Positions 2,696-32,829 of a stretch of 64,000 nt of DNA are shown piece by piece. The notes under the pieces were generated by a model that saw nothing but the letters and a program-made list of their open reading frames with translations, made no database searches and was not told the origin of the DNA. Location of the stretch: NCBI GenBank assembly GCA_947084875.1, contig CAMTUF010000003.1, positions 58,644 through 122,643 on the forward strand. The letters are read 5' to 3'. Made by a program: the position numbers and the translations under genes. Every line of letters begins with the position of its first letter. The stretch's first letter is position 1. Source of the DNA: an uncultured bacterium (GTDB taxonomy: Bacteria; Patescibacteriota; Saccharimonadia; Saccharimonadales; Saccharimonadaceae).

Positions 2696-2899
2696 TCCTT
2701 CATTGACATTTCCTCAATAATGATGTTTAATTAACACTAGTCAAGTCGAGTTTTGCTCCTTGATGTTTTTTAATAGTTGGATGATTAGTTTTATGGCGTA
2801 AGCTCCCACAAGCACAAGGTGGTATGTGTTTATTGGAGTTTACGCAAATAATGGCATGACCTCCGCCCACCCCACCCGCAACGAAACGGAGAACGAGCT

Positions 2900-4159
2900 A
2901 TGTCTAGCACCACGTCCCCACCGCCCCCGTCGGAGTTCACCAATGCGGTGAACTACGCCAAGTCCTTCGATGACTACCCCGAGAAGGAGCCCGCAGCATG
3001 GGCGCTCGGCTACGTCACGGAGCAGGATGGCGTCCTCACCGACGTCTTCTTCCCGCCTCCCTACGGCAACGTCGGCACCAACTACGGCAGCTTCGCGCTG
3101 CTGTGGCAGACGTCGTACGTCAAGGGCGACACGCGGTACGTCGACCTCGACAAGCTCGAGAACGACATGCTGCCGAAGTTCGCCTGGACCAAGGAGGAGC
3201 CGTACAGCCAGGACGCGCACCTCAACGTCGCGGCCATGGAGTACGTGCTCGACGTGGTCAAGAACGCCAAGCTCGGCTACGGTCGTACGCTCACGCCCGT
3301 TCTGGTGTCGATCGACGACCTCATGTCGGCGCCGACGTTCGGCATGCTCGAGGCGCGCCTGCGTCTGACGCTCGTGTCGGGCGGTCACCTGACGCTGGAC
3401 AAGATCAACCTCAAGAAGATCTTCACCCAGCTCAAGCGCACCGCATGGACGAACCACGGAGTCTTCGACGGCTCCAAGTCCGCGCTCGCCGCGATCCGAC
3501 GGGCGATGCAGAGCGAGGGAAAGTCCCTCGTGATCGACGTGCTGGACAAGTTCCCGATGCTCGTCGACTACATCGACCTGGACGACTCGATCCGTGTGCT
3601 GGGTCGTGTGCGCCTGGGTGCCTACCTGGGCAACGGCACAACGGTGATGGCATCGGGCTTCGTCAACTTCGGTGCCTACGTCACGGGACCGAATATGATC
3701 GAGGGACGCGTGCCCATCGGCTCGACCATCGGCGCGTTCACCGATGTCGGCGGAGGTACTTCGATCATGGGGACGACAAGCGGCGGCAACCCCGTCGTCG
3801 TCAACATCGGCGCGTACTGCCTGCTGGAGGCGATGTCGGGCATCGGCTTCCCGATCGGTGATCGGGTCCGTGTCGAGGCTGGCTTCTACGCCAAGAGCAC
3901 GACGCCGCTTCGGGTCAACCTCTACGACACCGCGTGGGATGGCAACGCGCTCATCGAAGCGCTGCGTCTGGAGCACCCGCTCTACCCCGCGGGCGAAGGA
4001 CCCACGCCGTTCGATGGAACGCTTAAGACCAAGGCGATCACCTTCGCCGAGATCAACGACGCCATCCTGCGACGCGACGCCGACACCGGGCAGCCCTTCG
4101 TCGTCCCGCGCGGCGACAGCACCTGGGGTGAGCTCGACATGGTCCTGCACACCGCCTGA
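2900..4159 (+). CDS. DapD-like hexapeptide-repeat acyltransferase (actinobacterial tetrahydrodipicolinate N-succinyltransferase type), extended 419-aa form
   Basis: Aligns by eye with M. tuberculosis DapD across WTNHG, (V/L)DKFP.(L/M)VDY, RVRLGA.L..GTTVM..GFVN, M(I/V)EGR, DVGGG.SIMGT.SGG and the LbH repeats. Codons end strongly in G/C. GGAG SD 8 nt upstream. Confidence 0.75.
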   Translation: MSSTTSPPPPSEFTNAVNYAKSFDDYPEKEPAAWALGYVTEQDGVLTDVFFPPPYGNVGTNYGSFALLWQTSYVKGDTRYVDLDKLENDMLPKFAWTKEEPYSQDAHLNVAAMEYVLDVVKNAKLGYGRTLTPVLVSIDDLMSAPTFGMLEARLRLTLVSGGHLTLDKINLKKIFTQLKRTAWTNHGVFDGSKSALAAIRRAMQSEGKSLVIDVLDKFPMLVDYIDLDDSIRVLGRVRLGAYLGNGTTVMASGFVNFGAYVTGPNMIEGRVPIGSTIGAFTDVGGGTSIMGTTSGGNPVVVNIGAYCLLEAMSGIGFPIGDRVRVEAGFYAKSTTPLRVNLYDTAWDGNALIEALRLEHPLYPAGEGPTPFDGTLKTKAITFAEINDAILRRDADTGQPFVVPRGDSTWGELDMVLHTA

Positions 4160-4163
4160 TCAT

Positions 4164-4238
4164 CCAGCTCCACGAAGGTTCGCCTCGCCTGCTTCACTGC
4201 AGGGCGCGCCACAAGCGCGTGCGACCCTTCGTGGCTGG
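4164..4238 (+). terminator. GC-rich interrupted stem-loop just after the island-1 stop codon (U-tract-less terminator candidate)
   Basis: CCAGC/GCTGG, CACGAAGG/CCTTCGTG and TCGC/GCGA pair (17 bp in total) around a 37-nt GC-rich loop. No T-run follows. Confidence 0.4.
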
Positions 4239-4314
4239 ACCACGTTATATAGTTTTCTATATGCCGTGATCTAGCTACTCTTACAGGCTTACCACTCGTA
4301 TATATTCTTTGAAT

Positions 4315-17196: not shown

Positions 17197-19068
17197 CTAT
17201 TGTCCTGGAATCTTAAATTGACCAGGGTCGTTTGTTGCTGGCGGAGGTGATGCCAAGATATCACCTAGACGTTCAGGTGCAGCAGCTGGTTGAGGCAAGG
17301 AATCAAGCGCATATGGCGAAGCAGCGGGCGTTGGGAGGGCCCCAAAATCTGGCAGCGGTGGTGGTGGCGGCAAAGTAATGCCAGGTGCTGGCGAGAACGC
17401 ACCAGGAGTGGCAGGTACGCCACCATACGCTGCGTTCACAGCCGCAAGCGCGTCGTCTCGTGACGCTTCATCACGACTCTTTTCAAGTGCAGGCGCAGGA
17501 ACGGCAAGTGTATCTACAGGGCTAGGCGCAGTGAGAGGACTCGTGCTAGGGAGCGTCGGTGCAGGTGGTGGCGTCGCAAAGATATCAACACCTCCCGCGT
17601 CGGCTGAATCGGTTACAGGCAAACCGAACGATGGAGAGGCACCACCGAGATATGAGTGTTTGCTTACCTCTTCTGATGGTGCTGGTACGAGTGGATCAGG
17701 TGTTGGTGTCAGAGGACTGAGTGGACTTGTCATACTTGAGTCAGGAAGAGTTGGCGCAGGTGGCATCACAGGGCTTGGCTGAATCAATGGACTGCTAAGA
17801 GGCTGAAGAGAGTCAGTCGTTGGCATAAGTGGCGTAATAGTCGGAGGAGCTGGTGGTGGTGCCAGAGGAGTTGTCATTTCAGGTAATGGTGGAGGTGTTG
17901 CAGGCACGATCGGCTCGACAACAAGTGGCGCCGTAGGAGCTGGAATAGGAGGCGCAGTTGGAACGCCACCGAGTAATGGCTGAACTGTCGGTGTGGCTGG
18001 AGCTTCTGCTGGAGCATCTGGATCCAGTGCGTAGGCATCCGCTATCTTACCGATAACAGGTGGTGCCGTGACTGGAGGAGTATCGATTGTGGCAGGTGGT
18101 GCAATAACAGGTTCAACGACGGGCGCTACGACTACTGGAGCAGCCGTTGGTGCTGGAGTTGGTGGCGCCACGACAGCAGGTGCTACCTCCTCATGAGTAA
18201 TAGCCATCCCCTCTTTGGTTGGGACGCTTGGAGGAACAATTCCCGACTCAACTAATGGTGTTGTGTACGCTGAATTGCTACCCGTCGGTGTCGCACCCGC
18301 ACCGATTTCGTGTGACTCTTGTAATTTAGCCGCAATAAGTTGTTGGTCGGCACCAGCTGCCATTAATTGTGCAGCCATCGTCATTACTTTCGACGAAGTT
18401 TTCGTATTACTAAAACGATCAGTTTCAGCCACGATACCAGTCAGCAGCGCCGTGGCGACTTGCTGATCGATGAGCGGTGTATCGGTTTGCAGTGATTCTG
18501 TTAAACCAACAACCATCTCACTCAAACTACTTGTTGTTGCGTCATGCCAATCAATACTACCAAGGCTGCTTGATGTCTCGCCCGTACTGATTGTGACTAC
18601 CGTCGCATCGTGCAAAATACTGCCATGAGCCTCAAGAGCAGCGTCCAAGTGTGTCTGGTTCTCAACTCCGAGTGCCAAGACTAACTCGACGTTGTAGTCA
18701 CCCTGACTAAACTCGAGATCTTCGTTACTGATTGTTGTGCGGTATGGGGTAATGAATATTTTAACTAAGTCACCTTCGACTTTGTAACGGAGGTGGTCGG
18801 CCTTTTCCTTATCAAGGGCGATAATGAAGTCACGAAGGCTATCGATTGATGCCTCAAAGGTTTTTTCTGGGTCAAGAAATGTTATTGCTGGTGGAGTTGC
18901 ACCACTAAAAATGGCAGTTGTGTGTTTGCCAAGTTTATTCAAGATAACCGTCAGTCCAATTGCAGCTGATAACGCATCAACAGAAGGGTCTTTACTGACG
19001 GTCACTAAAACATTAGTCGAGTTGGTAATTTTCTCAACTATCTGACTTTTCGTTTTAGCTTCGTTCAT
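17197..19068 (-). CDS. DHH/DHHA1-like (NrnA/CnpB-position) protein with degenerate catalytic motifs and a long proline-rich C-terminal region
   Basis: The N-terminal ~250 aa resemble the DHH-family fold, and the gene sits directly upstream of truB as nrnA does in many genomes. The DHH and DxD motifs are not identifiable by eye. The C-terminal ~370 aa are P/A/T-rich low complexity. Confidence 0.5.
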   Translation of the reverse strand: MNEAKTKSQIVEKITNSTNVLVTVSKDPSVDALSAAIGLTVILNKLGKHTTAIFSGATPPAITFLDPEKTFEASIDSLRDFIIALDKEKADHLRYKVEGDLVKIFITPYRTTISNEDLEFSQGDYNVELVLALGVENQTHLDAALEAHGSILHDATVVTISTGETSSSLGSIDWHDATTSSLSEMVVGLTESLQTDTPLIDQQVATALLTGIVAETDRFSNTKTSSKVMTMAAQLMAAGADQQLIAAKLQESHEIGAGATPTGSNSAYTTPLVESGIVPPSVPTKEGMAITHEEVAPAVVAPPTPAPTAAPVVVAPVVEPVIAPPATIDTPPVTAPPVIGKIADAYALDPDAPAEAPATPTVQPLLGGVPTAPPIPAPTAPLVVEPIVPATPPPLPEMTTPLAPPPAPPTITPLMPTTDSLQPLSSPLIQPSPVMPPAPTLPDSSMTSPLSPLTPTPDPLVPAPSEEVSKHSYLGGASPSFGLPVTDSADAGGVDIFATPPPAPTLPSTSPLTAPSPVDTLAVPAPALEKSRDEASRDDALAAVNAAYGGVPATPGAFSPAPGITLPPPPPLPDFGALPTPAASPYALDSLPQPAAAPERLGDILASPPPATNDPGQFKIPGQ

Positions 19069-25721: not shown

Positions 25722-26024
25722 CTAGTCAGAACCTTGTTTTAGTTTCCGTAGCTTTCTTACCGCGCGGCGGTCAGGTGGTGTTAGCCCTCCCCAAACACCA
25801 AAATCAGTGTTTGTCATAAGCGCGTACTCTAAGCATTGTCTCGTGACTTCACACCCCAAACACTTTTTTCTAGCTTCACGTGCACTTCCCCCTTTTTCTG
25901 GGAAGAATTCCTCCGTATCCATATCAACACAGGCGGCTTTAGGTTGCCATACACGTACGTCAAGTTCACCATCACTATACTGTCGAGTCTGTAAATTCAC
26001 GCGTTGTTCTGACGATAAAGGCAT
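25722..26024 (-). CDS. whiB: WhiB-like (Wbl) Fe-S transcription factor
   Basis: Cysteine pattern C-x23-C-x2-C-x5-C (CVDMD...CLGCEVTRQC), followed by the G(V/I)WGG turn (FGVWGG) and a basic tail. ATG 26024 is preferred (TACAAT lies 6 nt upstream). The track start at 26060 is a TTG. Confidence 0.8.
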   Translation of the reverse strand: MPLSSEQRVNLQTRQYSDGELDVRVWQPKAACVDMDTEEFFPEKGGSAREARKKCLGCEVTRQCLEYALMTNTDFGVWGGLTPPDRRAVRKLRKLKQGSD

Positions 26025-32010: not shown

Positions 32011-32057
32011 AAAAACTCCTGTTAATTCTAACACTTAGTATACCATTTAAGGGAAAT

Positions 32058-32069
32058 GAGGAGAAAGAT
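32058..32069. repeat. left arm of the perfect 12-bp inverted repeat GAGGAGAAAGAT
   Basis: The exact reverse complement lies at 32585-32596. Together they coincide with the composition boundaries of island 2. Confidence 0.7.
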
Positions 32070-32077
32070 CCCCGCGG

Positions 32078-32109
32078 GGACGGCGCGGTACATGCATACC
32101 ACGCCGTCC
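32078..32109 (-). terminator. GC-rich terminator hairpin downstream of the island-2 ORF
   Basis: Minus strand GGACGGCGTGGT-atgcatgt-ACCGCGCCGTCC (12 bp, one G-U pair), followed by a pyrimidine/U-rich stretch. Confidence 0.55.
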
Positions 32110-32116
32110 ACCACGA

Positions 32117-32584
32117 CTACGCCGACAAGGTGTAGACCTCGTAGACGGTCTTGCCGGGTCGAACAGACTTGTGCACGATGCCCCGAAGGACAAATGCATC
32201 AAGCAAGACGTCTGCGCGTTCCAGGCCGAATCGTTCGTTGAGAACGAGAGCGCGGTTGTCGTTGATGACAACCGACAGGAACGGGCCTGCCTGCCTGATC
32301 GTCGACAGCATCGTCTCCTGGTCGTCCGACAGGGGCACACGAATCGTGTGCTTCCAGTTCTTGTCGTCCTCTGGTGCAGCACTGGTATTCGTAAGACGCC
32401 TGAACGGCGACATGTACTTCGCACCAGGGATGGCCCTGACGATGCGCTTCAGCTGAGTCGCGCTCGGGGCTCCCACTTCTGACACCAGTTCAGGCCAGGT
32501 CGAGAACTCATACGACTGACCACAGCACAGCAGCTGCAGACGGTCGCGAAGTTCTTCGACACTGGGCATATCGATTACGGGCAT
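32117..32584 (-). CDS. orphan high-GC hypothetical protein (155 aa; C-terminal winged-helix-like segment)
   Basis: ORF with a GAGGAGAAAG SD 3 nt before its ATG and GC-rich codons. The overlapping antisense ORFs are high-GC artefacts. No family recognised. The tail ...LLDAFVLRGIVHKSVRPGKTVYEVYTL looks wHTH-like. Confidence 0.6.
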   Translation of the reverse strand: MPVIDMPSVEELRDRLQLLCCGQSYEFSTWPELVSEVGAPSATQLKRIVRAIPGAKYMSPFRRLTNTSAAPEDDKNWKHTIRVPLSDDQETMLSTIRQAGPFLSVVINDNRALVLNERFGLERADVLLDAFVLRGIVHKSVRPGKTVYEVYTLSA

Positions 32585-32596
32585 ATCTTTCTCCTC
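32585..32596. repeat. right arm of the 12-bp inverted repeat (ATCTTTCTCCTC), also the SD of the island-2 ORF
   Basis: Exact reverse complement of 32058-32069. Confidence 0.7.
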
Positions 32597-32651
32597 TGTT
32601 AATGCGGATTGTGAGGCTTTCTCACTATCCGATCCGAAAACGTACAGAAAT

Positions 32652-32679
32652 GAAAAACGCCGAGATTGCCTCGGCGTTT
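32652..32679 (-). terminator. rho-independent terminator downstream of argS
   Basis: Minus strand AAACGCCGAGG-caat-CTCGGCGTTT followed by TTTTT. Confidence 0.7.
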
Positions 32680-32829
32680 AGATTTCGTTATACGTTACGT
32701 GCTAGAAAACTACTCGTCCGAGACAACATCAAACAACATCGCGAGACAGAGCAGAGATTGTTGTTGAGTGATCTTCATTCAAACAGTTTCCTTACTTCCT
32801 ATAGTACAGAGAGAAAAGAGTGTTTGCAA

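Follow-up and report, generated by a model that had tools for sequence, protein, structure and literature searches.

A probable 5'–3' UTR clamp on the ribosome-binding site of a predicted winged-helix gene between argS and mscL of Saccharibacteria

To our knowledge, few bacterial mRNAs have a 3' untranslated region (UTR) that silences their own ribosome-binding site, and we know of no described example from the Patescibacteria (candidate phyla radiation, CPR). Here we describe a probable case from a Saccharibacteria (TM7) genome. In a stretch of 64,000 nucleotides of contig CAMTUF010000003.1 (the window), a 539-bp segment between argS and mscL (positions 32058–32596) carries an open reading frame (ORF) for a 155-residue protein, referred to as the cargo, within a perfect 12-nt inverted repeat. 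The original prediction had taken this repeat for the ends of an inserted element. We consider it probable that the repeat instead represents the two halves of an RNA helix, a 5'–3' UTR clamp occluding the Shine–Dalgarno sequence (SD) of a winged-helix gene.

Fold-back locking is a known property of the type I toxin mRNA hok (fbi). The mRNA of aapA1 from Helicobacter pylori, also a type I toxin, is locked by a 5'–3' fold-back (PMC5416894, PMC6733600). In icaR of Staphylococcus aureus, the 3' UTR contains an anti-SD sequence that pairs with the message's own SD, blocks initiation and creates a substrate for RNase III (Ruiz de los Mozos et al., 2013; PMC3868564). In Bacillus subtilis, distant anti-SD-like words can bind the ribosome-binding site by base pairing, with less initiation and altered mRNA decay as the outcome; endogenous genes are reportedly depleted of them (Gill et al., 2025, preprint; PMC12697547). 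The 5'/3'-UTR interaction of hbs (PMC5737220) has been grouped with this long-range pairing.

The inverted repeat is present exactly as predicted (GAGGAGAAAGAT at 32058–32069 on the plus strand, ATCTTTCTCCTC at 32585–32596), and the ORF (32117–32584, minus strand) begins right after the arm that holds the SD. The 12-mer is not a common SD word with many copies, as had been considered: only two copies are found in the 64 kb, even when one mismatch is tolerated (0.29 expected). Both junctions, for which a lack of read support had been named as a risk, were also recovered when run ERR3478706 was assembled independently (Logan), with 14,466 bp of identical sequence.

The comparative evidence comes from a scan for ArgS in species-representative genomes, which yielded Saccharibacteria metagenome-assembled genomes only; more ArgS homologues were traced to contigs. 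A module like that of the window was found in nine lineages: the window, L005 (identical with L014 and L019), L012, L020, L003, L015, L017, L018 and L007, with ArgS proteins 70–84% identical to that of the window. In every lineage the 5' arm spans the SD up to the start codon, regardless of the cargo. There are seven versions of the arms among the nine lineages, and the partners match over 11–14 nt, with no more than a single G·U wobble each (5' arm/3' arm):

Window: GAGGAGAAAGAT / ATCTTTCTCCTC
L005, L012 and L020: GGGAGAAAGATATG / CATATCTTTCTCCC (start codon included)
L003: ACGAGGAGATAGC / GCTATCTCCTCGT
L015: GAGGAGATGGC / GCCATCTCCTC
L018: ACGAGGAGATGGT / GCCATCTCCTCGT (terminal U·G)
L017: ACGAGGGGACGGT / ACCGTCTCCTCGT (internal G·U)
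L007: TTGGAGGAGAAAT / ATTTCTCCTCCAA

Only the two positions marked for L017 and L018 deviate from Watson–Crick pairing. Both wobbles are valid in the sense RNA; on the opposite strand they read C·A, and in DNA they are mismatches. Clean compensations from A:U to G:C occur at position −11 (window versus L005) and at position −3 (L003 versus L015). MAFFT alignment of the natural 5' and 3' segments scrambled the arms, so that an ATG-anchored, ungapped construct was used, which is partly fitted to the pairing. In this construct 88% of the cells are paired, and 98 of 99 in the 11-pair core. Changes on both sides were found for 11 of the 16 arm pairs, a value reached by none of 500 shuffles, and sliding the partner by 1–3 columns lowers the pairing to 39–56%. 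Shuffled 3' UTRs contained an equally long match in at most 7 of 20,000 cases in each lineage. When every ORF of the window and of eleven related loci was scanned, no other SD-containing start region with a 3'-UTR complement of at least 11 nt was detected. Compensatory mutations have preserved the pairing of the arms.

In the predicted structure of the window mRNA (611 nt), the 12-bp helix is present in both the minimum free energy (MFE) and the centroid fold, and five more pairs flank the AUG. The fold has a z-score of −11 against dinucleotide shuffles. In all six mRNAs tested, all arm pairs are part of the MFE structure with a mean probability of 0.96–1.00 (0.96 in the window). The energy of the arm duplex is −17.5 kcal/mol in the window and about −19 to −23 kcal/mol in the relatives (overall −17.5 to −23.4), about twice that of the SD with a generic 16S rRNA 3' tail (−7 to −12 kcal/mol). 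For positions −13 to +3, the predicted mean unpaired probability is 0.09–0.25 in the full-length message versus 0.35–0.70 when the message is cut before the 3' arm. Permutation of synonymous codons gave z-scores of −0.9 to −3.8 for six cargo ORFs and of +0.9 to −1.4 for four host genes, which suggests extra mRNA structure in the cargo ORFs.

Comparison with relatives in which the site is empty (L016, L002) revealed that the segment is part of a larger accessory module, with the following features (all on the minus strand; GC3 is the GC content at third codon positions):

32047–32829: whole accessory module, about 783 bp, delimited by comparison with the empty sites of L016 and L002
32801–32829: putative sigma-70 promoter directly after the argS stop codon (TTGCAA at 32829–32824, 17-nt spacer, TACTAT at 32806–32801)
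32710–32778: upstream ORF of 22 residues, MKITQQQSLLCLAMLFDVVSDE, with SD AAGGAAA and a TAG stop, conserved in all module-bearing relatives
32655–32679: strong intrinsic terminator separating the 22-residue ORF from the winged-helix gene, AAACGCCGAG-gcaat-CTCGGCGTTT and then a T-run
32605–32631: 5'-UTR hairpin, CGGAT-a-GTGAG-aaagc-CTCAC-a-ATCCG, part of both the MFE and the centroid fold, with about 9 nt between it and the SD arm downstream
32585–32596: 5' arm of the long-range helix, GAGGAGAAAGAT, SD plus spacer, its last base adjoining the ATG (32584–32582)
32117–32584: cargo ORF, 155 residues, GC3 0.72, two tandem winged-helix domains predicted
32078–32109: GC-rich 3'-UTR hairpin, 13-bp stem and 6-nt loop, beginning 7 nt past the cargo stop codon
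32070–32079: short palindrome, CCCCGCGGGG, after the GC-rich hairpin
32058–32069: 3' arm (anti-SD), AUCUUUCUCCUC, 47 nt past the stop codon, with 15 nt between it and the downstream −10 box of mscL
32037–32046: extended −10 element of mscL, ATGGTATACT, identified by comparing the window to L016 and L002

All occupied genomes have the same order of parts: promoter-like site, 22-residue ORF, terminator, covarying hairpin, SD arm, cargo ORF, GC-rich hairpin and anti-SD arm. The −10 element of mscL is the first sequence in common with the empty-site relatives and thus marks the right limit of the module. The unit extends beyond the two arms by about 230 bp to the argS stop codon and by about 11 bp to the mscL −10 box; the 12-nt repeat is therefore internal and not a boundary. 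An arm-like motif upstream of mscL was not found in the empty-site relatives, and in the occupied genomes the distance from the anti-SD arm to the extended −10 box of mscL is 15–24 nt.

A promoter-like arrangement of −35 box, 17-nt spacer and −10 box is found in the corresponding position in L003, L005, L012, L015, L017, L018, L020 and L007; it is called putative because the module promoter scores 8/12 against a threshold of 9/12 in our consensus scan. No recognisable promoter of the cargo gene's own was detected. The terminator, originally assigned to argS, follows the 22-residue ORF, which has a promoter-like site to itself. It is kept in all module-bearing relatives and missing from the empty-site relatives, so that it is part of the module and not of argS. 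The 5'-UTR hairpin shows compensatory changes at four of the five inner pairs (stem variants GTGAG/CTCAC versus ACAGG/CCTGT versus ATGGGAA/TTCCCAT). Every relative has a counterpart of the GC-rich 3'-UTR hairpin in the same place, with a different sequence. This hairpin had been recognised before, with a length of 12 bp that needs correction, as its arms are 13 nt long and 92% complementary.

Between eight lineages the 22-residue ORF differs at many positions, mostly by synonymous changes. According to RNAalifold, its SD and start codon pair with the region surrounding its stop codon. It could encode a leader peptide or a micro-protein, or be a small gene or a small RNA. A short ORF followed by a strong terminator, as in the leader of a ribosome-dependent attenuator, is present in all module-bearing lineages. 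By eye, the end of the ORF can form 6–7 bp with the 5' half of the terminator in the window, L003, L015 and L007, and only 4 bp in L005, L012 and L020. An anti-terminator is not supported by these 4 bp, and the pairing appears in no MFE fold. Rfam gave no match at the locus and only three tRNAs in the whole window.

The helix, the covariation, the module limits and the protein fold described below are results of computation, from which the following mechanism may be proposed. The 5' arm would act as SD plus spacer and the 3' arm as an anti-SD in the 3' UTR, just past a stable GC-rich hairpin. In the full-length message the arms would pair, closing the ORF into a loop and hiding the ribosome-binding site. 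Translation would then be confined to a brief co-transcriptional window, or to messages from which the 3' arm has been removed or displaced; the arm duplex may also flag the RNA for a double-strand-specific RNase. The clamp would be one layer of a low-expression design, in which the strong terminator lies between the cargo gene and the one promoter that could be recognised, and the cargo ORF is rich in GC3 codons rare in the host. Taken together, the clamp, the upstream terminator and the lack of a recognisable promoter of its own indicate that the gene is apparently kept nearly silent. The module itself is presumably gained and lost by recombination through argS and mscL.

Several points weigh against this interpretation. 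The 3' segments in the covariation alignment were placed by the pairing register, and as the nine lineages are related, the number of independent compensations is about 5–6 rather than 34. The perfect Watson–Crick match in seven of the nine lineages is equally expected of an inverted repeat at the DNA level. The 3' arm occupies the position expected for the −35 box of the mscL promoter. Furthermore, the GC hairpin with the palindrome, followed by the pyrimidine-rich arm, scores as weak terminator-like sites, so that some transcripts may end within or before the 3' arm. The clamp presupposes that both arms are on one transcript and thus assumes an mRNA that reaches through the 3' arm. That the pairing represses translation, instead of stabilising the message, is suggested by the direction of the effect in the analogous systems.

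The cargo was described as an orphan protein in which no family could be recognised, and searches of Pfam, PHROG, PADLOC, NCBIfam and PDB sequences indeed gave no usable match for the 155-residue protein. The cargos of the relatives are likewise without a Pfam match. The public gene call (P0001) has 150 residues, starting at the second ATG (32567–32569). The N-termini of the homologues favour the first ATG (32582–32584), as does its distance from the SD (GGAG at −10 to −7), and the public call is probably too short. An AlphaFold2 model based on a two-sequence alignment (predicted local distance difference test score 84, predicted template modelling score 0.75) contains two winged-helix domains in tandem, with a disordered linker between them. 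Each domain is an H-E-H-H-E-E unit, with a helix–turn–helix followed by a β-hairpin wing, as the fold demands. Foldseek matched single domains to MarR, ArsR/SqrR, RosR and TubR (probability 0.75–0.97, root-mean-square deviation about 3–4 Å, 67–78 columns, E-values of at least 0.1). Tandem-winged-helix proteins are present among the top matches; a significant full-length match was found neither in PDB nor in BFVD. The winged-helix-like C-terminal segment that had been proposed is thus borne out by the model and the domain matches, and the modelled fold suggests that the cargo protein binds DNA.

The cargo family has four members (window, L005, L012, L020), all at the argS–mscL locus. A word-indexed search of 5.8 billion proteins returned only the 155-residue protein itself, and an exhaustive HMMER search returned one true homologue, P0002; P0003 and P0004 were discarded as repeat-protein artefacts. 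No donor homologue was detected among about 15 billion proteins, phages, plasmids and IMG/VR. The other cargo families are also orphans. Comparison by hhalign of the 155-residue family with the 74-residue family (E-value 0.034) and with the 96-residue cargo (0.44) was not significant, so that common ancestry of the cargos is unproven.

The locus resembles icaR in the pairing of SD and anti-SD within the same mRNA: a complement of 12 out of 12 nt downstream of the stop codon covers the region from the SD to position −1. In both cases the gene product is a small regulator type of protein, DNA-binding in icaR and predicted winged-helix here. The differences lie in the extent of pairing (11–14 contiguous pairs up to the start codon, versus a UCCCCUG core in icaR) and in the position of the anti-SD, which lies about 50 nt past the stop codon behind a dedicated GC hairpin, whereas the 3' UTR of icaR is longer than 100 nt. 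Moreover, the module adds an upstream small ORF and a terminator, its cargo varies, the organism belongs to the Patescibacteria/CPR, and support comes from covariation across lineages and not from experiment. With B. subtilis the locus shares a pyrimidine-rich, anti-SD-like word hundreds of nucleotides downstream which is able to pair with the ribosome-binding site; unlike the depleted words of B. subtilis, the anti-SD is positively conserved here and co-evolves with the SD. We regard the locus as a new and well-supported example of an RNA mechanism that, though known, has seldom been documented; some of its features are distinctive.

With aapA1 and hok the locus shares, by prediction, a 3' end that pairs with the 5' translation-initiation region, which in type I toxins renders the full-length mRNA translationally inert. 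As the same mRNA logic is documented for aapA1, the module might be a type I toxin–antitoxin-like system, with a 5'–3'-locked message that needs 3' processing and a harmful product. Its accessory nature and patchy distribution, the several layers that hold expression down and the small upstream ORF with a hydrophobic core would fit this view. However, the cargos are soluble winged-helix proteins of 74–159 residues (155 in the window, modelled as soluble) and not hydrophobic membrane peptides of less than about 60 residues. No antisense antitoxin RNA was found, the consensus scan giving no promoter-like site antisense to the SD region and Rfam no match. PADLOC gave no match either. We therefore regard this explanation as very unlikely.

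The comparison of Saccharibacteria reveals a variably occupied slot between argS and mscL. It is empty (16–146 bp) in L016, L002, L006 and L022, among them the closest relatives of the window, L016 (ArgS 85% identical) and L002 (83%), with spacers of 48–60 bp. These empty sites confirm the view of the segment as accessory, for which a comparison with sister genomes had been proposed. Modules with a homologous ORF of 155–159 residues occur in L005 (= L014, L019), L012 and L020 (38–40% amino acid identity, BLASTP E-value 1e-24), and modules with an unrelated small ORF in L003, L015, L017 and L018 (74–84 residues) and in L007 (96 residues). In L004 (7723–8811) and L021 (4221–5312) the slot contains a gene of 362–363 residues at native GC content, the L021 product having no Pfam match on record. 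These alternative occupants, compared with the module in L003, indicate that the slot is a hotspot for accessory genes. In the ArgS tree, presence and absence are patchy even among sisters, such as the empty L002 versus the occupied L017, or L003 with the module versus its sister L004 with the 362-residue gene. A metagenome scan by a 21-mer anchor added L015 as a new lineage, while L014 turned out to be a duplicate of L005 and L013 a chance match.

The frame from the argS stop codon to the SD arm is 72–86% identical in eight of the nine lineages and 55–60% identical to the distant L007. The last 300 nt of argS are 66–77% identical, less than the non-coding frame. Cargo ORFs are 56–77% identical inside a family and reach only alignment noise between families. 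On the other side of the slot, MscL of L005 (8519–8923; also L019 and L020) is only about 38% identical to that of the window, while the MscL proteins of L002, L003 and L004 are 77–80% identical to it and the next gene in L005, msrB, reaches 85%. The mscL allele in the clade with 157–159-residue cargos may have been swapped along with the right flank of the module.

The GC content is 58.8% across 32058–32596 and 58.3% in the ORF (53–65% in 60-nt windows), lower than the 63–67% estimated before, and 42–43% in the flanks. By codon position, the cargo ORF has GC1 0.60, GC2 0.42 and GC3 0.72; host genes have similar GC1 and GC2 values and a GC3 of 0.38–0.47, so that the surplus is entirely due to third codon positions. 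Between the window ORF and its homologues, 68–86% of the four-fold sites in conserved codons differ, which means saturation. As GC3 is still high in the four lineages with this cargo family (0.72, 0.72, 0.65 and 0.81), the bias has been kept in place or repeatedly renewed. Besides the extra mRNA structure suggested above, throttling of expression by rare codons or GC-biased conversion at a recombination hotspot may be its cause. In bacteria, the least used stop codon is usually TAG. Among 36 long ORFs of the window TAG is used 19 times, TAA 15 times and TGA, which is all but avoided, twice; the cargo ORF has the host-preferred TAG. A recent, unameliorated import, as originally inferred, is contradicted by homologues in the same slot of three other lineages, by saturated sites with high GC3, by the lack of a donor homologue in the databases searched and by the TAG stop.

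A more far-reaching idea, which we hold to be rather unlikely, is that the slot is a conserved 'expression frame', made up of promoter, 22-residue ORF, terminator, hairpin and SD/anti-SD clamp, in which unrelated, GC3-rich small winged-helix genes are exchanged, or have diverged beyond recognition, the clamp being re-matched each time. If true, it would be a previously undescribed, tightly silenced accessory module of CPR bacteria, for example a protein-sized analogue of type I toxins or a dosage-lethal regulator in conflicts between epibiont and host or between strains. The high GC3 would then be adaptive silencing, by a compact mRNA fold or by rare codons, and not a sign of foreign origin.

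Two readings at the DNA level are highly improbable to the same degree. In the first, the arms are recombination sites of an invertase which flips the ORF relative to its SD (an inverton), uncoupling the two in phase variation, and recombination keeps the arms identical. Inverted repeats of 11–14 nt around a 0.3–0.5 kb segment, homogeneous inside each genome and different between genomes, would suit this reading. However, all recovered assemblies (window, L001 and eleven related loci) have the same orientation, no invertase was noticed beside the locus, and crossover sites would be expected to match at the positions where L017 and L018 carry mismatches tolerated in RNA. Nor would it explain why, with three different cargos, one arm coincides precisely with the SD in all lineages. 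In the second reading, the winged-helix protein binds the same 12–14-bp word as paired operators at its own 5' UTR and in the −35 region of mscL, possibly with DNA looping, and the sites co-evolve with the protein. The DNA-binding type of the predicted fold, the 15–24 nt from the 3' arm to the mscL −10 box and the variation of both arm and cargo among lineages speak for it. Against it, full complementarity over 11–14 nt in nine of nine lineages is more than operators normally keep, the generic SD word GGAG dominates the arms everywhere despite unrelated cargo families, mismatches are of the wobble type only, and the 5' site lies away from the module promoter.

The terminal repeats of a MITE-like (miniature inverted-repeat transposable element) or cassette-like element, bringing a high-GC gene from an actinobacterial donor, are scarcely credible as an explanation. 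The similarity consists of a GC-rich ORF flanked by a perfect short inverted repeat, at a site whose occupancy varies among close relatives. Yet here the repeat is internal to the variable unit, and it covaries, with seven arm sequences in nine lineages and G·U wobbles of the sense strand, where ends recognised by a protein should be conserved. There is no target-site duplication or flanking direct repeat, no transposase and no further copy in the 64 kb, and the scan of the window and the related loci turned up no further ORF bounded by arms. Further, the 5' arm is always the SD, GC3 is kept across saturated divergence and a donor homologue was found nowhere in the searches. Coincidence is a negligible explanation: GGAG in the arm is frequent upstream of genes, but the 12-mer is rare in the window and the arrangement recurs with different words in eight more lineages, each time beyond what shuffling yields. 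The original observation is largely correct, whereas its interpretation as a mobile element and a recent import is not supported.

The original prediction had paired the segment with another GC-rich island as two independent insertions of high-GC genes. This island (GC-rich span about 2840–4250) contains a gene for a 419-residue DapD-like tetrahydrodipicolinate N-succinyltransferase (2900–4159, plus strand; PDB matches 3r5a, 5e3p and 3fsx with E-values of 1e-37 to 3e-44), which has a GC3 of 0.89, a TGA stop codon, rare in this genome, and its own downstream hairpin. We looked for an SD/anti-SD repeat architecture in the island and found none. It has no module architecture, gives the impression of a truly foreign gene and belongs to a different category from the argS–mscL segment. 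A third GC-rich and GC-skewed stretch (about 17.2–18.4 kb) is not an island; it is the Pro/Ala/Thr-rich, low-complexity C-terminal half of a 623-residue protein (17197–19068, minus strand). A gene of the WhiB family (PF02467, 100 residues, about 25722–26024; L001 10559–10861) adjoins polA. WhiB proteins are characteristic of Actinobacteria, among which Saccharibacteria usually have their hosts.

The comparative support for the clamp is unusually clean. For genome scans the locus is a caution: a GC-rich island with an inverted repeat resembles transfer by a mobile element, yet the repeat here is probably RNA structure. With a conserved frame and a variable cargo, present or absent in sister genomes, the slot offers a system for studying how epibionts with reduced genomes regulate and exchange accessory genes.

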